A stretch of 64,000 nt of DNA from positions 160,001-224,000 of the forward strand of contig CAWJGT010000006.1 in the NCBI GenBank assembly GCA_963842525.1. Direction: 5' to 3'. Below are positions 14,330-48,669 of the stretch, piece by piece; the stretch's first letter is position 1; each line of letters starts with the position of its first letter. Under the pieces are notes generated by a model that worked only from the letters and a program-made list of their open reading frames with translations, was not told where the DNA came from and did no database searches. The translations under genes and the position numbers were made by a program. Origin of the DNA: an uncultured Holophagales bacterium (lineage in GTDB: Bacteria; Acidobacteriota; Thermoanaerobaculia; Multivoradales; UBA5704).

Positions 14330-16576
14330 ATGGCCATTTCGAGCAAGAACATCGCGACCCCGGTGACGCCACCGGCGGTGACCCGCTTCCAGGAGATCCT
14401 CGACTGCCTGGAGGCGCGGCGCCGCGCCTCGGACCCGTCCTTCCTGCGCGCGGTCTACGACTTCTCCGCCGAGATGCACCGCGACCAGCTCCGCCGCTCC
14501 GGCGAGCCGTACATGGTCCATCCGCTCAACGTGGCCTGGCTGCTGGCCGACCTCAACTTCGACCAGACCTGCGTCGCCGTCGGCCTGCTGCACGACGTGC
14601 TGGAAGACACCCTGACCACGCGCGAGGTCCTGGAGAGCGAGTTCGGGGGGGAGATCGCCGAGCTCGTCGACGGCGTCACCAAGATCGGCCGCCACGAGTA
14701 CGTGCGCCGCGACGAGGCCCAGGCCGAGACCTTCCGCAAGATGATCCTGGCCTCGGCCAAGGACATCCGGGTGATCGTCGTCAAGCTCGCCGACCGGCTG
14801 CACAACATGCAGACCCTGCAGCACCTGTCGCCCGAGGCGCGGCGGCGGATCTCGCGCGAGACGCTGGAGATCTACTCCCCGATCGCCCACCGGCTCGGCA
14901 TGGCCAAGGTCAAGGGCGACCTCGAGGACCTCGCCTTCTTCCACCTCTATCCGCACCAGTTCGGCGAGCTCCACACCCGCATCACCGAGAAGATGCGGCT
15001 GGCCCAGGACGACATCCGGGACATCCACGAGAAGCTGGCGAAGAGCCTGGAGGCGGGCGGCGTCGAGGCCGAGATCAGCTTCCGCGTCAAGCGCTACTAC
15101 TCGATCTACGAGAAGCTGCGCCGCCAGGGGATCGATATCTCGCAGCTCTACGACTACCTGGCCTTCCGGATCGTCACCACGGGCCTCAAGGACACCTACG
15201 CCGCCCTGGGCACCGTGCACCAGGCCTGGCGCCCCATCCCGGGCCGCTTCAAGGACTACATCGCGATGCCCAAGCCGAACGGCTACCAGTCCCTGCACAC
15301 CACCGTGGTGGGGTCCAAGGGGCAGCCGTTCGAAGTGCAGATCCGCACGCGCGAGATGGACCTGGTGGCGGAAGAGGGGATCGCCGCCCACTGGCGCTAC
15401 AAGGAGGGCCGGGTCGAGAACCGCGACTACGACCCGAACATCCTCTGGCTGCGCCAGCTCCTGGAGTGGCAGAAGGAGGTGCAGGACCCGCGCACCTTCC
15501 TCACCACCCTCAAGGTCGACCTCTATCCGGACGAGGTCTACGTCTTCACCCCCAAAGGAGACGTCCTCGCTTTCCCGCGCGGCGCCACCCCGCTCGACTT
15601 CGCCTACCGGGTGCACACCGACGTCGGCCACCACTGTGCCGGCGCGCGCGTCAACGGCCGCCTGGTGCCGCTGCGCACGCCGCTCCAGAACGGCGACATG
15701 ATCGAGATCCTGACCAACCCGGCGCGCAACCCGAGCCGCGACTGGCTGACCTTCGTCGTCACCTCGCGCGCCAAGAGCAAGATCCGCCAGTGGCTCAGTA
15801 CGCAGCAGAAGCAGCGGGCCGTGGAGATCGGCCGCCGCCTGTTCGAGAAGGAGGTCCGGAAGTACGGCTCCACCCTGCGGAAGGTCGTGGACGCGCCCGA
15901 AATGGCCGCCTACCTCCAGGGTGAAGGGCTCTCCAGGGTCGACGACCTCTACAGCCGGGTCGGCTTCGGCAAGACCGAGAGCCGGCAGGTGCTGGCGCGC
16001 ATCCTGGGCGAGGAGAAGATGGCCGAGGCGGGGGACAAGCAGCCTCCCGGCAAGATCCGCCAGGCGGTCAGCAAGATCCTCCCCTTTGGCGGTCCGACCA
16101 CCGGGCCGATCCGCGTCAAGGGGCACGGCGACCTGCTGGCCTATCTGGCGAAGTGCTGCAATCCGCTGCCGGGCGAGGAGATCGTCGGCTACGTGACGCG
16201 CGGACGCGGCGTGTCGGTCCACTCCACCGACTGTCCGAATGTCAAGAACCTCATGTACAACCCGGAGCGCGAGATCGAGGTCGAGTGGGCGCGCGGCAAG
16301 GACGACGTCTACCAGATCTCGCTGCTGATCGAGACCGCCGACCAGCCGGGGATGCTGGCGCGCCTGACCGAGGTGATCACCAAGGTGGGGAGCAACATCA
16401 CGCAGATCGAAGCGGAGACCCACGACACCGGCCGCGCCTCGATCGGCGTAGTCTGCCAGCTCCGCGACCGCAAGCACCTGGACAAGCTGATCCGCGAGGT
16501 GCGCTCGATCTCCGGCGTCTTCCGCGTCGACCGCCGCATGACCGGCGGCGGCACGTTCGCCGAAGCGGTCACCTGA
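14330..16576 (+). CDS. rel: Bifunctional (p)ppGpp synthetase/hydrolase (RelA/SpoT homologue)
   Basis: LHDVLED HD motif, KDYIAMPKPNGYQSLH, EVQIRT, TGS, CC and ACT domains. Confidence 0.97.
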   Translation: MAISSKNIATPVTPPAVTRFQEILDCLEARRRASDPSFLRAVYDFSAEMHRDQLRRSGEPYMVHPLNVAWLLADLNFDQTCVAVGLLHDVLEDTLTTREVLESEFGGEIAELVDGVTKIGRHEYVRRDEAQAETFRKMILASAKDIRVIVVKLADRLHNMQTLQHLSPEARRRISRETLEIYSPIAHRLGMAKVKGDLEDLAFFHLYPHQFGELHTRITEKMRLAQDDIRDIHEKLAKSLEAGGVEAEISFRVKRYYSIYEKLRRQGIDISQLYDYLAFRIVTTGLKDTYAALGTVHQAWRPIPGRFKDYIAMPKPNGYQSLHTTVVGSKGQPFEVQIRTREMDLVAEEGIAAHWRYKEGRVENRDYDPNILWLRQLLEWQKEVQDPRTFLTTLKVDLYPDEVYVFTPKGDVLAFPRGATPLDFAYRVHTDVGHHCAGARVNGRLVPLRTPLQNGDMIEILTNPARNPSRDWLTFVVTSRAKSKIRQWLSTQQKQRAVEIGRRLFEKEVRKYGSTLRKVVDAPEMAAYLQGEGLSRVDDLYSRVGFGKTESRQVLARILGEEKMAEAGDKQPPGKIRQAVSKILPFGGPTTGPIRVKGHGDLLAYLAKCCNPLPGEEIVGYVTRGRGVSVHSTDCPNVKNLMYNPEREIEVEWARGKDDVYQISLLIETADQPGMLARLTEVITKVGSNITQIEAETHDTGRASIGVVCQLRDRKHLDKLIREVRSISGVFRVDRRMTGGGTFAEAVT

Positions 16577-16636: not shown

Positions 16637-16867
16637 CTACTGCGCCGCCTCGCCCTCTTCCGGCTTCCAGCTCCGCACCGGCGCCTTGACGACTTTGCCG
16701 CTGCGCAGGCAGCGGGTGCAGGTCCAGATCCGCCGCACCCTGCCCTCGATGAGCGCCCGCACGTGCTGCAGGTTGGGCTCCCAGGTGCGCGACGTGACGT
16801 TGTGCGCGTGGCTGACATTGCGGCCGAAGACCGTCTTCTTACCGCAGATCTCGCATTCCTTGGCCAT
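16637..16867 (-). CDS. rpmB: 50S ribosomal protein L28
   Basis: CEICGK..GRNVSHAH..PNLQ..CTRCLRSG. Confidence 0.97.
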   Translation of the reverse strand: MAKECEICGKKTVFGRNVSHAHNVTSRTWEPNLQHVRALIEGRVRRIWTCTRCLRSGKVVKAPVRSWKPEEGEAAQ

Positions 16868-16970: not shown

Positions 16971-17535
16971 GTCTCGGGACGCTGCTTCAGCGTGAGCTCA
17001 CGCTGGTTTTGCGGAGCGTACGCTGGGCCAGCGTCTCGGGACACTGCTTCAGCGTGAGCTCACGCTGGTTTTGCGGAGCGTACGCTGAGCCAGCGTCCCG
17101 GGACACTGCTCCAGCGTGAGCTCACGCTGGTTTTGCGGAGCGTACGCTGAGCCAGCGTCCCGGGACACTGCTCCAGCGTGAGCTCACGCTGGTTTTGCGG
17201 AGCGTACGCTGAGCCAGCGTCCCGGGACACTGCTCCAGCGTGAGCTCACGCTGGTTTTGCGGAGCGTACGCTGAGCCAGCGTCCCGGGACACTGCGCCAG
17301 CGTGAGCTCACGCTGGCTTTGCGGAGCGTACGCTGGGCCAGCGTCCCGGGACACTGCTCCAGCGTGAGCTCACGCTGGTTTTGCGGAGCGTACGCTGAGC
17401 CAGCGTCCCGGGACACTGCTCCAGCGTGAGCTCACGCTGGTTTTGCGGAGCGTACGCTGAGCCAGCGTCCCGGGACACTGCGCCAGCGTGAGCTCACGCT
17501 GGCTTTGCGGAGCGTACGCTGAGCCAGCGTCCCGA
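16971..17535. repeat. Tandem array, 9 x 62 bp plus a partial unit, built of palindromes
   Basis: Units start at 16971, 17033, 17095 ... 17467; typical unit contains CCAGCGTGAGCTCACGCTGG, AGCGTACGCT and GTCCCGGGAC; no spacers. Confidence 0.97.
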
Positions 17536-17537
17536 GA

Positions 17538-18523
17538 TCATTTGCCCGCCCGCCGCAGGTCGGCCAGGAAGCCATGGGCCATCTCCAGGGTGATCGTCTC
17601 CCTCTCCACAGCCTCGCAGAACAGCTTGATCGTGGCGAAGGCCTCGCGGGAGACCTTCTGGGCCTGGAACACAGGTACGAGCTGCCGGGTCAGCTCCTGG
17701 ACCTCGGCGGTCCTGTCCTGGCCCAGGTAGAGGACGGCCAGCTCCAGGGAGACCAGAGCCGTGTCGTAGGCGATGTCGAGCGTCAAGAATTCTTTGTGCA
17801 CCTGCTCGAAGGCCGCTTCGGTGCCCTGGGGCTCGCCGCGAAAGTTGGCGATCCTCCCGCCCAGCCAGGTCAGGCGCACCAGATCGAGCTGGTTGCCGAG
17901 CCGGATCGCCTGGTCCCGGACCTCGTCGATCATGGCCTCGGCTTCGGTGTGTCGGCCGAACTCCGCCAGCTCGATGGCCTTATCGGCGTCGTGGGCCGCG
18001 GCTTCGATGCTCAAGTTGCACAGAAGCTCGCTAAGCCCCAACTGTGGAATTCCGGGCTCTGCCGCACCTGAGTCCGCCTCTGCTCGGGCGCGAGGGGCTT
18101 CAGGCGATCCCACAGCCAGGGGGCAATGCGCCGCTCCACTTCGGCTGCTTCCCAGGCGGATGGATGAGGCTGCCCGGGCAGAGCTTCGAGCTGCTTTCCC
18201 AGCGAGGTCTCCAGTATCCGGGCGAGCCGCACCGCGGACCGGGTGGCACCGGCCGCCGTCGAGCCTCCCTGCAAAGTGAGCTCGGCATAGGGGGCAAGGA
18301 GGTCGGCGACGGCTTCCAGAAGCGGGATCGTCACGCGCAAGGCATGGGCGAGCCGCCGGAGCGTCGCGGGCTGCGGGATGAGCAGGCCCTGCTCGTAGTC
18401 CAGAACCACGTGCGGCTTCAGCCGGGCAGCCCGGGCCACGTCTTCCGGGCTCAGGCGGCGCAGCGCCCGGAACGCGGCCAGTGCTGCATGAAGGCCGGGC
18501 CGTCCTTGCGGTCTCTTCCTCAT
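17538..18523 (-). pseudogene. XRE-HTH + TPR regulator, frameshift near 18037 and probable internal deletion near 17962
   Basis: SD AGGAGG; HTH LSPEDVARAARL..YEQG..LRRLAHAL; one extra G in TGGGGC joins it to LSELLC..AYDTALVSLELAVLYL TPR C-terminus. Confidence 0.75.
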
Positions 18524-18646
18524 CTCTCCTCCTGAAAATCCTGGTTGTCACGGCTTCCATGAGACGAAACGCACCATACTTTTCGGAACCCTGCCCCCGT
18601 GACCATCGGGGCCGCGGGCGGGTAGCGATCCTGAAAGGAGCTGCGC

Positions 18647-19012
18647 ATGACATCGTTTTCGTTCCGCCGCAAGGTCCTTGTCCTCCTCTTGGTCGGAGCG
18701 TTTAACATGCCCTGGGCTCTGGCTGCAGAGCCGCTAACTTCCCCCGAGCGTGCTCAGACCTTCGATTGGGCCCCGCTCGACCTCCTCTCCGGCTTTTGGA
18801 GAGCTCTTATCACTCTCTGGGGCGAGGAAGGTTGCACCATCGACCCGTACGGTCGCTGCATCACCAGCCCTGGCAGCGGCGCCACCTCGGGCACGACGGG
18901 TGACAACGGGTGCACCATCGACCCAAGTGGCCGCTGCCTGCCCACCTCCCTCCCCTCTCCCCGGCACTCGGCCGGCTCATTCCAGTCCGCCGGGAGAGGG
19001 GGCGCTTCATGA
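18647..19012 (+). CDS. Small secreted precursor with two GCTIDPxGRC cores
   Basis: SD AAGGAG; signal peptide RRKVLVLLLVG..WALA|AE; EEGCTIDPYGRC and DNGCTIDPSGRC. Confidence 0.8.
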   Translation: MTSFSFRRKVLVLLLVGAFNMPWALAAEPLTSPERAQTFDWAPLDLLSGFWRALITLWGEEGCTIDPYGRCITSPGSGATSGTTGDNGCTIDPSGRCLPTSLPSPRHSAGSFQSAGRGGAS

Positions 19013-19490
19013 GCCCGCCCGCCGGAGGTCGTTCAGGAAGCCCCGGGCCATCTCCAGGGTGATCGTCTCCTTTTCCACGGCTTCGCAGAACAGCTTGACG
19101 GTGACGAAGACCTCACGGGAAACCTTCTGCGCCTGGAACACTGGGGCGAGTTGCCGGGTCAGCTCCTGGACCTCGGCCGTCCGGTCCTGGCTCAGGTAGA
19201 GGACGGCCAGCTCCAGGGATACCAGGGCTGTGTCGTAGGCGATGCCGAGCGCCAGGAAATCTTTACGCACCTGCTGGAAGGCCGCTTCGGCTTCCCGAGC
19301 CTCTCCGCGAACGTTGGCGATCCTTCCGCCCAGCCAGCTCAGGCGTACCAGATCGAGTTGATTCCCGAGCCGGATCGCTTGTTCTCGAACCTCGTCCATC
19401 ATCCTTTCGGCCTCGGCGTGGCGGCCTACTTGGTGCAGGTTCTCCAAGAGGTTGAACCGCAGGCCCCACAGTACCCGCGGCTCGCGAAGT
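19007..19490 (-). pseudogene. 3' fragment of a paralogous TPR protein
   Basis: Closely similar to 17538-17960 (GNQLDLVRL.WLGGRIAN..AYDTALVSLELAVLYL.QDRTAEVQEL); no 5' part visible. Confidence 0.8.
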
Positions 19491-19873
19491 TGCGGGAAGC
19501 GGCCGTGTACAGGCCGGACCGCCAGGGCAGTCTCGAGGTGGGTCCGGGACCGGCTGTGAAAGATGTCGAGAGCCGCGAGCTGAACCTTGACGTCTTCCAC
19601 GAAAGCACCCGTCGAGCGCTCTATGACGTCGTGGTGCGGGACAACTTCACCGAGCGCGCACTCGATCCTGAGGCTGATCCGCCGGAGGTCTGGGTGCCGC
19701 CGTATACCCCGGACGAGGCGCAACTGGAGGTCTTCTTCCTGCTGGGCCGCTGGTTCGCCACCTGGCGGAAGCTGGAGGCGCCGGCCGACGCTCCGGAGCA
19801 CGAGCGACAGGAGCTGCTGCGCCTCGAGCCCCACCGGCATCGACCGGGGGACATCGAATACACGGACGTCTGA
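19490..19873 (+). pseudogene. Hypothetical gene fragment abutting the TPR remnant
   Basis: Protein-like frame (EVFFLLGRWFATWRKL) with no clear start. Confidence 0.3.
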
Positions 19874-42125: not shown

Positions 42126-43466
42126 TCAGGCGGGCTCGGGGCGGAGCAGCAGGCCCGGGCCGCCTGGCAGGCGCTGGAGGACGCCGGAGACCAGAGCGAG
42201 CAGCTCGAGAGTGCTCTGGTCCTTCTCCACGGCTTCGACGAGCAGGAGCAGGGCGACCATGGCCTCGCGTTCGACGCCAATGGATCGGAAGGTCGTCACC
42301 AGCTCGGAGACGAGCAGGCGGACCTCCTCTCTCCGGCCCTGCCGCAGCCAGACCGCAGCGAGCTCGAGCGAGACCAGGGCCGCGAGGTAGCCCAGCCCGG
42401 CCGTGTCCACGCCGCGGCGTGCATCGAGAAACAGCTCCTCGGCCTGGGCGAGGTCGCCGAGCCCCGCGGCGATCTTGCCTTCGATGATGTGCAGCTTGGT
42501 CTGCTCGCTCGGGCCGGCATGGCGGGCGTAGAGGGGCCGCATCCTCTGGATCTGCCGCCTCGCCTCCCCGAGATCGCCGAGCTCGACCCGGAACAGGAGG
42601 GTGTTGTGCAGAGCGTGGAACGCCAGGCGCGGGTCGCGCTCCCGGTCGATCGCGGCAAGCCCCTCGGCGAGAAGAGGCAGAGCCTGATCGGGGCGGCCCA
42701 TGTACCCGGTGTAGAGGCCCTTGGTGATGAGCATCCGGCCGGCCTCATGCGTGTCTTCCCTCTGCGTATAGAGGGCGTGCGCCTCGTCGAGCATGCGGAA
42801 CGCCTCCGGGAACTGCCGCTGGTCGCAATAGAGCGATGCGCGCAGGTCAGCCAGGCGGGCGAGCAGGGCCGGTGAGCCGTTGCCTCCGGCCTGCAGCTCC
42901 AGGGCCCGCGCCATGGCATCCTGGGCCTGCGCGAGGTCTTCCCGGACGCGCCAGGCGTTGGCCAGCTCCGCCCATGCACGGACACGCAGGTCGAGGGTCT
43001 CGCGCATGCCGTATCTCCCGGAGTCGAGCCGGTCGGCCGCGTGCTGCGCGAGCTGTGCCAGCCGCAACATGCCCGCGGGGTCGTCGTGCCGCAGCTCGCG
43101 GCTCTTCTCCAGCAGCGTCGTGAAGAGGTCCAGCGTCCAGAAGCGAGGGTCCTCGGGGAGCGCCGGGCCGCGGAGCAGGCGTGACACCTTGCGCTCCACC
43201 TCCTGGCGGGCGATCAGCTCGCGGTTGCGGGTCAGGACATGGGTGAAGGCCGAGGCGATCGCCGTGTCGTAGGCGGCGTCCAGCTCGGGGGTGAGCTCGG
43301 CTTCCTGCAGGCCGGGTTGGAACATGGCCGTCGCGTACGGCCCCATGGCGTCCTGGCAGTGACGGCAGCCGGCCGCCAGATGCCGCAAAACGGCGTGCGC
43401 CTGCTCGGCCGGTAGACCGCTGCGGAGGAAGCCTTCCAGCGTCTCGCGATCAGGATGTCCAATCAT
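42126..43466 (-). CDS. zf-HC2-like N-terminus + TPR protein
   Basis: SD AAGGAG; HPDRETL..HLAAGCRHC; TPR helices; C-terminal ALVSLELA motif shared with 17538 and 19007. Confidence 0.8.
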   Translation of the reverse strand: MIGHPDRETLEGFLRSGLPAEQAHAVLRHLAAGCRHCQDAMGPYATAMFQPGLQEAELTPELDAAYDTAIASAFTHVLTRNRELIARQEVERKVSRLLRGPALPEDPRFWTLDLFTTLLEKSRELRHDDPAGMLRLAQLAQHAADRLDSGRYGMRETLDLRVRAWAELANAWRVREDLAQAQDAMARALELQAGGNGSPALLARLADLRASLYCDQRQFPEAFRMLDEAHALYTQREDTHEAGRMLITKGLYTGYMGRPDQALPLLAEGLAAIDRERDPRLAFHALHNTLLFRVELGDLGEARRQIQRMRPLYARHAGPSEQTKLHIIEGKIAAGLGDLAQAEELFLDARRGVDTAGLGYLAALVSLELAAVWLRQGRREEVRLLVSELVTTFRSIGVEREAMVALLLLVEAVEKDQSTLELLALVSGVLQRLPGGPGLLLRPEPA

Positions 43467-43527
43467 CGTGGCTCCTTCCATCAAAACAACAGCAAAAGAA
43501 ATACCAGCCTGCTCCGCACAGCCCGCA

Positions 43528-43824
43528 TCAACCGCCGTTGCCGGCAGGTGGAGTCGGCACACCGGTCAAGGAGCCTCCATTCGGGTCCACGCCGAACCCC
43601 TTGTCCACTTCGGACTGCGTGGCTGCTTGCCAAAACGAAAAGATGCCGCTCATCCTCTCGCCGAGCCCGCTCTGCTCGACGACCGCGGCCCAGAAGACGA
43701 GCCAGCCCTGGCTCCTGGACGTCCTTGCGGTCTCTTCCGCGGCGGCAGGCCAAGCCCCTGCAAGCCCGATCCCGGCGGCGAGCAGCAGCACGGCTATCCC
43801 TCTGCGGATGATGTGTCGGTCCAT
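43528..43824 (-). CDS. Small secreted precursor with DKGFGVDPNG core
   Basis: SD AAGGAGG; signal peptide RRGIAVLLLAAG..WPAAA|EE; 98 aa. Confidence 0.75.
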   Translation of the reverse strand: MDRHIIRRGIAVLLLAAGIGLAGAWPAAAEETARTSRSQGWLVFWAAVVEQSGLGERMSGIFSFWQAATQSEVDKGFGVDPNGGSLTGVPTPPAGNGG

Positions 43825-43973
43825 TCGGTCCCTCCTTTGACTCGAACGAAAGCAGGGCATCTTACAATCCAAGGTGCGCAAGGATAGCAGATCCGCGCCA
43901 TCCCCTTGCGCACCCGGTGAGCAATCCGGCTTGTTTTGCGCTCAAGAGCTGAGCAATTTAGACCCTCACCAGC

Positions 43974-46900
43974 CTACAAAGTCGCGACCGCCGCCTTGCG
44001 CCGGAGCTGGAGCACCTGGACATCGGGGTCGACGACCACCTTGTCGGGCTCGAAGGCGCAGCGGATGCGGACCACCTTCTCCTCGCCGGCTTTGAGCAGG
44101 ACCGTGCTGCGTGCCTCGCGGTAGCCGGCGACCGGCTTGCCGTCCTCGGTGAAGCGCTCGCCCTTCGTCGCCGCCACCTCGACCGGCATGCGGCCGGTGC
44201 CGGCGTTCTTGACGCGGACGATCGCCTCCCACCCGCCGCCGGAGCGCGCCTTGCGTGAGCCGCTCAGCTCGTACATCGGCATGACGACCTCATGGAACCA
44301 CTGCTTCACGAAGGCGTCGTACCCCGGCTTGTCGGCGGCGAAGGGGCGCATGGTTGCGATGAAGTCCTGGAGCACGGGGTGGTCGGGCTTTTCGCTCCAA
44401 TCGGCGATGAACTGCCGCAGGCCGGCGAGGGCGCGGTCACGGCCCATGTGCCGGAGGAGCATCCAGAAGACCCAGCCGCCCTTGTCGTAGGTGACCGTCT
44501 GGTCTCCCGCCTTGGTGCCGTCGATGCGGACGAGCGGGCGCTCGGCGTCCACCTGCCGGTCCTCGCCGTAGTTCTCCTCGATCCGCTTGGCGAACTCCAT
44601 GCGCGCCCGGGCGCCCTTGACCTGCTCGAACAGGAGCATGGTGGAGAAGTGCGACATCCCTTCGGAGAGGATATTGCCGCCCGGGCCCTTGCCGGGCGTC
44701 AGGAGGTTGCCCCACCACTGGTGGGCCGCCTCGTGGGCCGTGACCATGAAGGCGGCGTCGGTCTTGATGTCGCTCTTGGTGAGGAAGCCGATCCCCTCCG
44801 AGAAGGTGATGTTGGTCGGGAACCCCTGGGCGTAGGTCGCGAGGTTGGGGAACTCGGAGAGCTTGAGCTCACGCCAGGGATAAGGGTGGAACCACTCCGA
44901 ATACCAGCGCCGCGAGGCGTCGAGCGCCCCGATCATCTCGTCGATGTTGTAGCCGTGCCCGGGGTGGTGGTAGATCACCGTGCCGTTGCCCCGCCGCTCC
45001 TTCCAGCGCCCGGCGACCACGTTGAAGAAACGGACCGGCCGGTCGCTCTCCCAGACCACGGTGCGCTGGCCCTTGTCCACCTTGTCCTGCAGCTTGGTGC
45101 CCACCGAGTTCCAGGTGTACTCCGCCGGTCCGGTGATGCGGATGCGGGTCGTATAGGAGCGGTTCATGCCGAAGGCCGAATCGGTCTTGCCCTCGTAGAA
45201 GTCCGGCGGGTAGTCGCGCGGCTCGTACTGGTTCTCGTCCTCGTCGACGCCGACACCCTCGATGTAGCCCACCACCGGCACGAAGCTGGGGCCGAAGCTG
45301 GTCAGCACCACGCCGGAAGGGAGGATGAACTCGTTGGTGCCGCCGCCGTTCTCGGTGATCCCCTCGGGGAAGGCCCCCTCGAAGTCGAAGCCGATCCGCA
45401 GCCGGCCGCCGGGCGGGAAGGGGCCGGGCGGGGTGAACACGTAGAGGCTCGACTTGTCCTCCGGCTTGTAGGGCTTGCCGTTCAACGTCCACTTGACCTT
45501 CTTCCAGTGCGCGCCGCCGGTCAGGGCGAAGCGGGAGAGGGCGTGGTCGCGGTCGTTGACCAGGTCGTAGGTGCCTTTGTTGTGGAACCAGCGGCGGGCC
45601 GGATCGAAACGCAGGTCGAGGCCGACGGCGGTGACCGCCGGCTGCGGCGCGTCCTTCCAGGTGGCGAGGTTCTGCTTCCAGTAGTCCTTGCCCTTCTTTT
45701 CGTAGGCCCCGCCCCGGAAGCCGTCCTCCACCGCCAGCCAGAGCATGATGCCGGTGACCAGCGGGACGATGGCAAAAGGGGCCAGGCGCAGCGCCTGCCG
45801 GAAGAACGGCCGGGGGGAGAGGCGGTGCATGGTGCCGATGGCGTCCACCTGCCGGCGCTGGAAGCCGCGGACCGAGACGGCGATGAACAGCGCGGCGAGG
45901 CCGAGCGCGGTCAGCCGGTTGAGCAGCAGGGCGCGGGCGTCGAGCTCGAAGGTGCCCATGTCCGTCCACTCCAGCGCTCCCCAGAGCGGCCAGTTGCCGA
46001 CCCAGTTCATCTTGCCGGTGATCAGGCAGTAGCCGGTGAGGAAGATGACGGCGAGGCCGACGCCGTAGGTGACGAAGCGCTGGCCGGTGATCGCCCGGAC
46101 CGCGGTGATGAACGAGGTCCAGAGCAGGAAGGTGGGGATCAGCAGCAGCCCCCAGACGAGCAGGAACGGCCGCAGGTCGAAGCCGACCTTGCCCTGAACG
46201 AGCAGCGCAATGGCACACCCGATGAACGCCGCGAGCACCACCACCAGGCCCACCAGGCTGTTCGCCAGCGATTTGCCGAAGAGCATCGAGGCCGTGCGGA
46301 TCGGGCTCGCGTAGGCGATCGAGCCGAAGCCCGTGGCGCGGTCGCGCTCGATCGACTCGACGGTGTAGAACATCAGGAGCAGGGAGAGCAGGAAGCTCAG
46401 CACGCCCATGGAATTCACCGCCAGCCCGCCCGGCGTCAGCAGCATCCGGGTCTGGAACGCTCCCAGGGTGAACATGGCATTGCCCAGCGTCTCGACGAGG
46501 ATGAGGACCGCGAAGAGGTAGATGCCGGGCGAGGCGAAGAGGTTGCGGATCTCCGTTCCCGCGATCCGGGCGGCGCCGGCGAAGAACCCGGGCGCGGAAG
46601 TGCGCATCCCCAGATCGGCGAGGAGCGGGGGGGCGGCGCGCGGTGCGGGCTTCGACCACCGTCGCCTCGGCGGCGGCGCGGCGGCGGCGGAAACGGAGGA
46701 TGCGGCGCTCGCGCGCGGGGATCTCCGCGCCGCGTACGCTGCGCGCCAGGTGCCGCTGCGCCAGGGCCACGCCGAGCAGGCCGATGCCGCTGAAGGCGAG
46801 CCGCGACAGCACGAAGGGCAGGTCCAGGCCGATGCGGGCCGTGTTGTAGAAGCCCGCGCCGCGGTCGAGCTTGATCCAGGTCTCGTCGAGCCAGCGGAAG

Positions 46901-47583
46901 CCGGCCGGGTCGACCAGCATCAGGGCGCGGTTGATCCGCGGATCGAGCCAGGTGGGCGCCCAGTCCCACAGGAAGAAGGTGCAGAGGAGGAGCACGCCGA
47001 TGGGGAGCAGGAACACGGTGATCGGCTTGCGCCAGCGCTCGCCCAGGAAGAAGGCGACCCCGGCCAGGAACAGCAGGGTCGGCAGCCCGAAGATCAGCGC
47101 CGGGCGCAGGTAGTTGACCGCCTCCAGAGGGCCCCGGATCTCGGCCGCCTCGGCGTTCGGCACCACGTGGTTGAAGAAGACCATCGACAGGAGATGGAGC
47201 CCGAGGACGGCGAGGAAGCCGGTCAGCACCGCCAGGAACTTGCCCCAGACGTACTCGCCGGGCCGCAGCGGGGTGGAGTGGAGGACCTCCCCGAGCCGGT
47301 TCTCGTCGTCCTGGACCACGGTCATGCCGGCGGCGATCGAGACGAAGAAGCCGTGCATGGCGCAGACCATGATGGCGAGGATGATGCCGACGTTGAACTC
47401 GGAGGTGATCCAGGCCTTGGTGCCGCCCACCGAGGCGTCGCCCGACTGGATGCGGGCATTGCCGGTCGACATCAGCCAGCTCAGGAGGAAGACGAGGAGG
47501 AACAGCCACCAGAAGAGCGGACGCCGGAGGGTGTGCGCGAGCTGCAGGCCGTAGACCGAGCGGAACCGCGCGAAGCTCCTCAT
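43974..47583 (-). CDS. ABC-2 permease / M1 aminopeptidase fusion (frameshift near 46620)
   Basis: Two permease halves (TPLRPGEYVWGKF, SPIRTASMLFGK) then AHEAAHQWWG..SEGMSHF, YDKG. Confidence 0.85.
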
Positions 47584-48501
47584 CGAGCCCCTCCCGCCGC
47601 CGCCGTGGCCTCTTCCTCCTGCGGCTCCGCCGCGGCGTCCTGCATCCGGAGGAGGTAGGCGTCCTCCAGCGTGGCCTGGACCGGCTCGAAGCCGAGCGGC
47701 GCCTGGCCCGTCGGGCTCGTAGATCCGCACCCGGTGCTTGCCCTCGACCAGGATGGCCTGGGTGACCTGAAGGCGGCTGCGCACCTCCTCGAGCTCCTCG
47801 CGCGCCACCCGGCCCTCGAAGATCCGGCCCTGGATCGTCGTCCGCGCCTCGTGCGGCGAGGTCAGCGCCACCAGGCGTCCCCGGCGGATCACCGCGAAGC
47901 GCGGGCAGAGCACCGCGACGTCCTCGACGATGTGGGTCGACAGCAGGACGATGCGGTCCTCGGCCAGCTCGGCGAGCAGGCGGTAGAAGCGGAGGCGCTC
48001 CTCGGGGTCGAGGCCGGCGGTCGGCTCGTCGGCGATGATCAGCCGCGGATTGCCGGCGATCGCCTGGGCGATGCCGAGCCGCTGGCGCATGCCGCCCGAG
48101 TAGGTCTTGACCCGCCGCTTCGCCGCATAGGTGAGGTTGACCCGCTCCAGCAGCTCGGCGCAGAGCTTCTTCATGCCGCCCGGCGCATCGATCCCCTTGA
48201 GCTCGAGGAGATGGGCGAGCATCTTCTCGCCGGTCAGATGGGGATAGAAACCGAAGTCCTGGGGCAGGTAGCCCAGCCGTTGCCAGACCTCCTCCGGCTT
48301 GGCGAGGACGTCCTTGCCATCGAGAAGGACCTGTCCCGACGTCGGCTCCAGCAGCCCGGCCAGGATCCGCATGAGCGTCGTCTTGCCGGCGCCGTTCGGT
48401 CCCAGCAGGCCGAACATCCCGGGCGGGACGTCGAGGTTGATGCCCTGCAGGGCCGTCACGGGGCCGGGGTAGACCTTCACGAGATCGCGGATCGTCAGCA
48501 T
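47580..48501 (-). CDS. ABC transporter ATP-binding protein (frameshift near 47700)
   Basis: GPNGAGKT, YSGGMRQR, DEPTAGLD, STH. Confidence 0.93.
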
Positions 48502-48669
48502 GGGTCGGTTCCTTTCTGGTGCCGGAGCGGCCGGCGCAGGCCGGTCCCAGCGTGTTCTACGCACGAGCTGTGTGAGAGGTTACTCGACAACAGGCGGAAT
48601 CGGCCGGGGGCCGGGCTCGGTTATCCTGTGGGGACTTTGCCGGCCGGGTTTCCGGCCCAAGGAGTGAAC

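Follow-up and report, generated by a model that had tools for sequence, protein, structure and literature searches.

The window considered here is a stretch of DNA of 64,000 nucleotides that corresponds to C6:160001-224000, on contig C6 of the genome (G000) of a soil acidobacterium, which has 9.95 Mb in 34 contigs with 68% G+C. The element in question, locus 1 (window 17538-19490), combines a gene for a small precursor protein, P1, with the remains of two genes, R1 and R2, for regulators containing tetratricopeptide repeats (TPR), and a second locus of related composition, locus 2, occupies window 42126-43881 (Table 1). An earlier note on this DNA had singled out the two as a candidate peptide-signalling system of the RRNPP kind. 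All the elements that it claimed for locus 1 were found in their places: an XRE-type helix-turn-helix (HTH) and TPR gene, recognized in Pfam by HTH_31 (5.4e-8, 33.5 bits, cut-off 27) and HTH_3 (27.3 bits, cut-off 23), shares a divergent gap of 123 bp with a 121-aa open reading frame (ORF), and the translation of this ORF displays the Sec-type signal, the Trp-rich segment and the two cores. The remnant of a second TPR gene does converge on the stop of P1, but of the 277-aa ORF that holds it only ~19007-19490 is TPR-derived.

In reading order P1 consists of MTSFSFRRKVLVLLLVGAFNMPWALA followed by AEP..., then LDLLSGFWRALITLW, EEGCTIDPYGRC and DNGCTIDPSGRC. Its signal peptide (aa 1-~26) has the n-h-c form and ends WALA/AEP, and the Trp-rich helix spans aa ~44-58 (segment LDLLSGFWRALITLW). 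The gene is intact, with a C-terminal tail about 20 aa longer than in the nearest paralogues, the closest of which, of 103 and 128 aa, are 65% and 60% identical to it. Alignment of three paralogous loci over the divergent intergenic region gives a mean column identity of 77%, and GAAAGGAGCTGC.CATG at the start of the small ORF is invariant but for one base; an imperfect palindrome in this region was seen in L009 only, the locus of the intact receptor paralogue L009:553-2001. A promoter and terminator scan of 18400-19100 returned nothing.

At locus 2 the earlier note saw the same design. The pairing of a small ORF with a TPR gene is real there, but the two form a co-directional operon, with P2 61 nt upstream of the 446-aa TPR gene, and the receptor carries a zinc-motif N-terminus instead of an HTH. 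This N-terminus of about 50 residues has the form H-x24-H-x4-C-x2-C and is followed by a long helix and then by a TPR sensor that is a homologue of the locus-1 sensor; the Pfam scan detects no HTH in the protein. P2 has a signal peptide ending PAAA, Trp-containing segments, a single core, DKGFGVDPNG, devoid of cysteine, and a short variable tail. Orthologues of the receptor, 53-80% identical, occur in metagenomes and in relatives, and at least seven of nine orthologous P2 loci preserve each of three features, namely the signal peptide and PAAA site, a Trp and G.G.DPNG, while the linkers and tails vary in sequence and length. Locus 2 is, by all appearances, an intact copy of the module.

Table 1. 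Coordinates of the features of loci 1 and 2 and of the gene upstream of locus 2
Feature	Position in window	Strand	Basis or remark
R1, remainder of C-terminal sensor (TPR), in another frame	17538-~18052	-	tblastn against intact paralogue
R1, N-terminal part: XRE-type HTH and linker	18011-18523	-	frame closed by premature stop after 1-nt deletion
Divergent intergenic region, 123 bp	18524-18646	.	block conserved in paralogous loci; GGAG ribosome-binding site before small ORF
P1, small precursor, 121 aa	18647-19012	+	translation; family alignments
P1 core 1, GCTIDPYGRC	18830-18859	+	translation
P1 core 2, GCTIDPSGRC	18908-18937	+	translation
R2 remnant: last ~160 residues of sensor domain	19007-19490	-	tblastn; convergent on P1
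Type-A receptor, 446 aa, intact gene	42126-43466	-	Pfam TPR_12, 35.2 bits (cut-off 30.1)
P2, small precursor, 98 aa from MDRH...	43528-43821	-	translation; HMM match 1.9e-10
Fused permease (presumably ABC-2-type) and zinc peptidase (presumably M1-type; HEAAHQWWGN)	43974-46607	-	directly upstream of P2; motif from translation

The precursor family and its pairing with TPR genes

A hidden Markov model (HMM) of the small ORFs, iterated over the six-frame ORFs of the genome, grew from 27 to 75 matches at E<=1e-3, the last few of which are false positives in proteins of 249 and 427 aa; the family counts are based on a trimmed set of 71 matches at E<=1e-8. Both loci of the earlier note are real, yet they are two of ~70 in the genome, members of a large expanded family with many decayed copies. 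Identical TPR/peptide loci stand at contig ends (C9:1-6000 and C18:1-6000; C8:1-1800 and C10:32000-33900), and these are probably either assembly duplicates or real repeats that broke the assembly, so that the count of ~70 is slightly inflated.

The anatomy of the family is uniform. At least one DPxG is found in 68 of the 71 copies, with 1 to 4 per protein, and the precursors carry 1-5 cores. By a simple rule, 60/71 of the genome's own copies and 136/146 metagenome representatives have a signal-peptide-like N-terminus. The last core ends at most 6 residues from the C-terminus in 54/68 own copies and 137/146 metagenome representatives, and it constitutes the C-terminus itself in 21/68 of the former. 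In the family alignments the D, P and G are invariant, in agreement with the conservation that the earlier note expected of homologues and with the retention of the core in the locus-2 orthologues; the preceding Gly is nearly invariant, as are two Trp in the helix after the signal peptide, and Cys residues flank each core in one branch only (type B, below). Signal peptide, Trp helix and cores are conserved across genera.

Neither Pfam nor NCBIfam has a model matching the small proteins, and in particular neither database identifies a toxin-like domain in them. An ESM Atlas search recovers unnamed Acidobacteriota clusters only. A profile of 29 copies searched against 1.84 billion representatives matches 3759 clusters at E<=1e-3, 916 at 1e-10 and 5 at 1e-30, and most of the 3759 are of 90-135 aa. 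Among the metagenome relatives are a few of 639-783 aa (P0132, P0134, P0238) with about 30 nine-residue GxxxDPNG[RK] repeats between unrelated end domains; from the N-terminus these consist of a signal peptide, an N-terminal domain, the repeats and a C-terminal part with VDEWDGEVVKR-like repeats. A reading of the small proteins as ribosomally synthesized and post-translationally modified peptides was rejected: the precursors have Sec signals, and the loci share no recurrent modifying enzyme.

The residue two before the Asp of the core behaves differently from the invariant positions around it. Across 175 precursors with at least two cores, of 217 examined, 18 residue types occupy this position between proteins, and within a precursor it is identical in 54-56% of core pairs as against 9-10% once cores are shuffled between proteins. 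None of 500 shuffles reached the observed within-precursor identity, a count which is not a probability given the kinship shared among the sequences. As a control for recent internal duplication, the within-precursor excess at the variable position (0.46) was set against that in the linker columns, where it is 0.13-0.34.

Turning to the receptor genes, 69 of the 75 small-family matches lie within 600 bp of a TPR-family ORF detected by a first TPR HMM. This model had broadened to TPR proteins in general (199 ORFs, of up to 1831 aa), and a second, specific HMM was therefore made from the last 150 residues; it detects 112 ORFs, 69 of which have a small-family ORF within 600 bp, compared with a mean of 2.0 and a maximum of 6 in a random control (same-length intervals, 200 draws). 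The earlier note had proposed just such a genome-wide search with the C-terminus of the TPR protein, and the enrichment of adjoining DPxG ORFs that it anticipated is what was observed. Many of the other 43 ORFs are C-terminal fragments of frame-shifted genes whose front part is closer to a small ORF. The pairing of small ORF and TPR gene is far beyond chance.

Two layouts account for most of the family. In type A (37/71, including locus 2) there is only a co-directional downstream TPR gene and the core lacks flanking Cys, while in type B (16/71) the cores are Cys-flanked and the small ORF stands between a divergent and a convergent TPR gene, as at locus 1; the remaining 18/71 have mixed or incomplete layouts. 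The same associations are seen in other genomes: at 7/7 type-B loci retrieved by means of the locus-1 peptide an HTH-TPR gene adjoins an ORF with Cys cores, and at 9/9 type-A loci retrieved by means of the locus-2 receptor a small-family ORF stands immediately upstream of the receptor gene. A single related locus from a metagenome-assembled genome labelled Thermoanaerobaculia showed no small-family ORF in the 4 kb of sequence available there. Additionally, an XRE-type HTH protein of ~150 aa is encoded near about 10 loci, in several of them convergent on the 3' end of the type-A receptor gene (HTH_3 34.5 bits, cut-off 23; e.g., C24:109131-109583, C19:526710-527171 and C4:251090-251581), and it is possible that it is the DNA-binding partner of the receptors that lack an HTH.

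A search with the locus-1 peptide yields a match in 25 of 41 related genomes; by affiliation the figures are 23/24 in the same family and 1/16 in other families of the order. The profile matches 2 of 301 genomes from across the phylum, both in the same family, in a survey that scored 16 candidates per genome and may have missed weak matches. Type-A receptors at E<=1e-60 are present in 25/25 genomes of the family, mostly without internal stops. Among the genomes searched, the module is restricted to one taxonomic family of Acidobacteriota (Thermoanaerobaculia-like). The genome encodes 6 Omp85 matches, a control that is positive in diderm reference genomes only, and three SBP_bac_5 genes for binding proteins of the Opp/Dpp type, one of them 3 kb from a type-A locus, although the presence of these genes does not show their use.

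Sensor fold and output domains

The type-B regulators, of ~480-500 aa, consist of an HTH, a linker and the sensor. The second regulator of L009, for instance, matches HTH_31 (34.6 bits) and TPR_12 (74 bits) in Pfam, and homologues are annotated as helix-turn-helix or TPR proteins only, the organism, where named, being a member of Thermoanaerobaculia. The two regulators of one type-B locus are alike to different degrees along their length: their HTH regions are ~34% identical, while the DNA of their sensors is 78-98% identical over 0.9-1.1 kb at most type-B loci (among the matches listed, 13/16 flank pairs). The sensor pair of one and the same locus is the best match in 8/16 loci, the others being confounded by tandem arrays that share flanks.

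An AlphaFold2 (AF2) model of the intact paralogue, from 62 sequences, is confident (pLDDT 91.3, pTM 0.76) and comprises five helices in the HTH region, a linker of lower confidence and, from residue ~125 onward to the C-terminus, paired helices that wind into a TPR superhelix. No signal peptide or membrane helix was seen in the translations of the receptors. When the sensor model is searched with Foldseek, LGN, designed TPRs and OGT come first (E ~1e-6) and RapJ takes rank 19, and with VIA-align the scores are Z 22.1 for LGN (rmsd 3.6, 300 aligned), 20.5 for NprR (3.5, 297), 20.3-20.5 for phage and Bacillus Rap and 19.8 for NprR-NprX. LGN, NprR and Rap all bind peptides in their groove. Since these scores are nearly tied, the fold shows only that the sensor is a TPR superhelix of the long, peptide-binding type. 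A profile search of the sequences in the PDB gave, among the best 60 of 179 matches, designed TPRs and XRE HTH proteins and no RRNPP protein. Several polar residues, among them N216, R219, S261 and N335 in the numbering of the intact paralogue, are conserved in both receptor types. Prediction of a complex between sensor residues 120-482 and the mature precursor yielded no answer (score 0.02, mark 0.32), and it is counted neither for nor against binding.

The type-A receptors begin with the pattern [ED]HP[ST]..L..FL......HLL..C..C, in which H4, H29, C34 and C37 are invariant in 13/13 paralogues. This recalls the zinc-binding anti-sigma factors RslA, RsiW, ChrR and RsrA, to which the type-A H...H-x4-C-x2-C on a predicted three-helix unit is alike. 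However, the latter proteins have an H-x3-C spacing, in contrast to the H-x4-C and the additional upstream invariant His of the type-A receptors, and a co-transcribed gene for an extracytoplasmic function (ECF) sigma factor, which most type-A receptors do not have next to them. The Pfam model zf-HC2 scores 12.1 bits on the type-A N-terminus against a cut-off of 22.2, and 3/13 members reach E<10. For the first 108 residues AF2 predicts three short helices and a long one (pLDDT 85.6); the best Foldseek rows obtained with this model are mostly anti-sigma domains (RslA, MucA, DdvA, RsiW, ChrR), but at the background level of E 0.88-4.7, and the VIA-align scores for RsiW (Z 5.5), RslA (5.3) and MucA (5.2) are likewise within a background of 114 chains at Z>=5.

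The genomic neighbourhoods point the same way in one cluster. Of the 47 Sigma70_r2 matches in the genome, two are directly upstream of type-A receptors, both in C34:43373-47870, where the order is ECF sigma, zinc-motif TPR receptor, small ORF, ECF sigma and frame-shifted receptor, the small ORF being a member of the DPxG family with its core reduced to IDDNG. Locus 2 and most other copies have no Sigma70_r2 match within 2 kb, and the C34 receptors are the only sigma-following ones found. The invariant HHCC and these two sigma-adjacent copies thus make an anti-sigma identity of the type-A N-terminus a lead, and one that fails the Pfam threshold.

Peptide sensing and its alternatives

Several lines of evidence place peptide sensing in the RRNPP manner first among the readings, at a confidence that falls a little short of an even chance: the one-to-one pairing over ~70 diversified copies, the use of one sensor family with interchangeable output domains, the retention of the same sensor by the two regulators of a locus, the C-terminal, multi-copy core with a hypervariable position that is constant within a precursor, and the conservation of the core among orthologues. 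With about equal confidence, just below evens, we propose that the module consists of a Sec-exported small precursor that supplies a DPxG peptide and of the adjoining cognate, cytoplasmic TPR sensor, the whole being lineage-specific.

The steps of such a system can be sketched as follows. The sequence shows that the small gene is translated from a conserved GGAG site, and the precursor would be exported and cut after the AxA site; in type B the two Cys around each core might close a nine-residue loop in the periplasm. The cores could then be freed from the multi-core pro-peptide, of which the conserved Trp helix would be the pro-region, and the peptide would build up outside the cell and be re-imported, possibly by an Opp-type importer, for which the three SBP_bac_5 genes are candidates. 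Inside the cell, it may bind in the groove of the TPR superhelix, where N216, R219, S261 and N335 might hold the invariant D-P-x-G while variable receptor residues read the hypervariable position two before the Asp. The output would in type B pass to two HTH regulators with one common sensor, and in type A to the zinc-motif N-terminal domain, perhaps holding a sigma factor or the small XRE partner.

A number of observations weigh against peptide sensing. The proposal, as drawn from sequence, stops at the gene products, and release, re-import and binding are all predicted steps. A core of 9-12 residues exceeds the usual limit of general porins, so that the outer membrane presents a barrier, and no protease or transporter recurs at the loci, the small XRE protein being the only other recurrent neighbour; a gene with ABC and M1 features (below) is linked to locus 2 alone among the genome's own loci. 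We know of no role for a conserved Trp helix in the known RRNPP pro-peptides. The D-P-x-G is invariant in all paralogues, which leaves few positions by which ~70 channels could be told apart, and the long multi-repeat relatives indicate that the motif may be structural, metal-binding or protease-related, apart from any signalling. The fold match, too, is generic for long TPR superhelices. Finally, the many frame-shifted and truncated copies fit fast-turnover systems of conflict or recognition equally well.

The strongest competitor takes the small proteins for cargo, that is, for secreted or periplasmic effectors of an antimicrobial, adhesive or metal-binding nature, controlled by TPR proteins that would be common local regulators of transcription or of sigma factors and sense something else. 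A divergent or operonic gene with its local regulator is the commonest bacterial arrangement. An invariant DPxG turn, loops closed by Cys and long relatives with many repeats would suit a structural or binding peptide, the high share of broken copies suits fast-evolving effector families, and neither an importer nor a protease is linked to the loci. It leaves unexplained, however, why each of ~70 peptides should have its own diversified sensor, why near-identical sensors are kept in the two regulators of one locus, why a single family of sensors should be combined with two unlike output domains and why a hypervariable position of the core is held constant within the precursor. We regard it as unlikely, though it deserves more weight than any of the readings that follow.

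A different solution would dispense with re-import across two membranes. TPR chaperones of type III secretion bind their substrates, and by analogy a cytoplasmic TPR protein could bind the C-terminal core of the unexported precursor and be freed as a regulator when the latter is exported. The receptor is cytoplasmic and its partner is made in the cytoplasm, the cores sit at the extreme C-terminus like many TPR-bound motifs, and the pairing is one to one, all of which would be expected. Yet no such gating of Sec export is known, the Cys pairs point to a role that follows oxidation in the periplasm, and there is no obvious use for several cores per precursor; this secretion-coupled switch seems to us quite improbable.

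Slightly lower still we place kin or self recognition, or another form of conflict, in which variable secreted peptides would act on neighbour cells and the TPR proteins would protect from them or respond to them. The massive lineage-specific expansion, with birth and death of copies, and the limitation to one taxonomic family among those searched speak for it, but the receptors have domains of a DNA-binding or anti-sigma-like kind and none of the traits of immunity proteins, their HTH part alone is matched by PADLOC models, and the small proteins, as noted, display no toxin-like domain in Pfam or NCBIfam. That the small ORFs are mere chance frames beside a TPR gene family, as might be feared in a 68% G+C genome with many spurious long ORFs in every region, is refuted by the thousands of matching clusters, 916 of them at E<=1e-10, and by the conservation of signal peptide, Trp helix, cores and ribosome-binding site.

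Returning to peptide sensing, the closest parallels are NprR-NprX and PlcR-PapR, which share with the present type-B modules a cytoplasmic receptor with an N-terminal XRE-type HTH followed by about nine TPR hairpins and an adjoining small ORF with a secretion signal and its functional part near the C-terminus. They differ in being from Bacillota, whereas the present module belongs to Acidobacteriota with outer-membrane genes, and there is no link at the sequence level, the present receptors matching generic Pfam TPR and HTH families only. Further, the present pro-peptide has the conserved Trp helix, the invariant DPxG turn and, in type B, the Cys loops, and there are two receptors per peptide gene in type B and ~70 modules per genome.

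Rap-Phr resembles type A in its HTH-less TPR receptor with a secreted pro-peptide and in its many paralogous pairs per genome, and the Rap fold matches the present sensor at Z 20.4. The Rap N-terminus is a three-helix bundle acting on response regulators, unlike the HHCC zinc-type motif of the type-A receptors, and the gene order also differs, the peptide gene being upstream in the present type-A loci. AimR-AimP again combines an HTH-TPR receptor with a small secreted precursor whose C-terminal end is the mature peptide, but it is a single phage-borne system, while the modules described here belong to the chromosome, with no sign of a phage context at either of the two loci. The best structural match is the TPR domain of LGN/Pins, a superhelix whose inner groove accommodates extended peptides; it is eukaryotic and of unrelated biology, and so the resemblance to RRNPP proteins exists only at the level of the general long TPR superhelix. 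The occurrence of several motif copies per precursor has a parallel in tandemly duplicated Phr pro-peptides, with several copies of the pheromone motif in one, as described in a study of these (PMC11343458).

The claim of the earlier note that this is the RRNPP layout accordingly divides in two. The HTH with ~9 TPR hairpins and the fold like that of NprR and Rap stand, but membership in RRNPP does not follow from models and sequences in which LGN attains the higher Z, Pfam recognizes generic TPR only and no sequence link appears; it should be taken as not established. Its further claim, of an undescribed peptide-TPR communication family in a diderm, holds for the recurrent, unannotated pairing and, with the six Omp85 matches, for the diderm, while communication is its proposed role.

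Acidobacteriota are abundant, poorly cultured soil bacteria whose cell-to-cell signalling is almost unknown. Searches of full text, outside the reach of which were subscription journals and supplementary files, located no publication that treats RRNPP together with Acidobacteria. Nor did they locate one that connects these bacteria with peptide pheromones, quorum sensing and TPR, or one in which a DPNG motif is discussed alongside signal peptides and tetratricopeptides; Thermoanaerobaculia together with tetratricopeptide occurred only in a paper on sulfur cycling. Peptide systems are presented as a Bacillota trait in the introduction of the RRNPP_detector paper, and going by that section peptide signalling via cytoplasmic TPR receptors is viewed as a property of Bacillota and mobile elements (PMC10075063). 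Against this background, what is new here suggests a very large family, as yet without annotation, in which the logic of peptide-TPR signalling is followed by bacteria other than Bacillota.

Going one step further, we tentatively envisage a network of private channels in an outer-membrane bacterium, with ~70 modules and two kinds of output, that would either have been invented independently or be very deeply related to the RRNPP logic; this is possible, but carries somewhat less confidence than peptide sensing as such. No firmer is the corollary that such channels might end in pairs of HTH regulators or else in a zinc domain of anti-sigma-like character, through which peptide sensing would be coupled to sigma control. 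Whichever reading is true, 3759 clusters and ~70 copies per genome represent a large unannotated piece of Acidobacteriota biology. The short, synthesizable cores and confidently folded sensors make the family testable, and its many paralogues permit the comparison of cognate with non-cognate pairs.

Decay of locus 1 and surroundings of the two loci

The earlier note described the receptor copy of locus 1 as damaged, and so it is. Compared with the intact 482-aa paralogue (L009:553-2001), the N-terminal part of R1 is 63% identical to residues 5-167 and is followed by a frame-shift at ...HSWGL/SELL..., where one G is gone from a G-run that has five G in two paralogues. By tblastn, residues 162-189 and 340-480 of the paralogue are matched, and residues 190-339, ~150 residues or about four TPR hairpins, are missing. 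The C-terminal remainder of R1 is 82% identical to the R2 remnant over 142 aa, and the shortened receptor scores only 12.7 bits against a Pfam TPR family. R2 is truncated at its N-terminus, its stop (19007) overlaps that of P1, and tblastn matches in the 277-aa ORF are restricted to residues ~119-277. The 1-nt deletion in R1 may be a homopolymer assembly error, but such an error provides no explanation for the loss of 450 nt. Among sequencing runs, none of RNA is listed as containing this sequence. A soil-metagenome DNA run contains a quarter of the sampled words, and contigs of short fragments from it cover 15/30 bins, none of them crossing the R1 frame-shift with enough flank to check the 1-nt deletion. 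Broken copies are common across the family, with many tblastn matches split between frames, and even at the best-preserved locus a 1-nt insertion, outside any homopolymer, is present in the second regulator.

From its sequence locus 1 is a pseudogenised member of the family in which neither receptor is whole. P1 is then probably at most an orphan peptide gene, whose product could engage in cross-talk with the closest intact locus, C9:1870552-1873943, the cores of which share the Thr of P1 at the variable core position.

Locus 1 is adjoined by a 62-bp tandem repeat (window 16971-17534; 9.1 copies, 97% matches) whose unit contains the palindrome CAGCGTGAGCTCACGCTG. Arrays of this unit occur at 15 or more other sites in the genome, some near TPR loci (C11:142k, C32:36k, C9:576k). 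An identification as a CRISPR was dropped because there are no spacers, the units following each other head to tail, and in an Rfam scan the repeats gave sub-threshold hairpin matches only, with no family at threshold. Beyond the array, on one side of the locus, are a RelA/SpoT-like gene and rpmB (14330-16576 and 16637-16867), and on the other, from 20194 onward, a pilM/N/O-like type IV pilus operon, all named from translations only. The position of locus 1, wedged between housekeeping genes, suggests that the module was inserted together with the repeat array.

Window 43974-48564 (-), directly upstream of the gene for P2, holds an ABC (ATP-binding cassette) ATPase gene and the fused permease-peptidase gene, whose product we take to be of the M1 and ABC-2 types. 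The C-terminus of the permease-peptidase is found upstream of the small ORF in 6/9 orthologous loci of other genomes (tblastn). The permease-peptidase could serve in processing or export of the peptide, or its gene be the regulated target.

The part of the 277-aa ORF outside the R2 remnant is antisense to a separate small gene on the + strand (~19631-19873, ...VWVPPYTPDEAQLEVFFLLGRWFATWRKLE...), which has no Pfam match. A homologue of this gene, a 78-aa ORF with a GC3 (G+C at third codon positions) of 0.91, is located at C9:576489-576725, between an array of the 62-bp type and a TPR locus.

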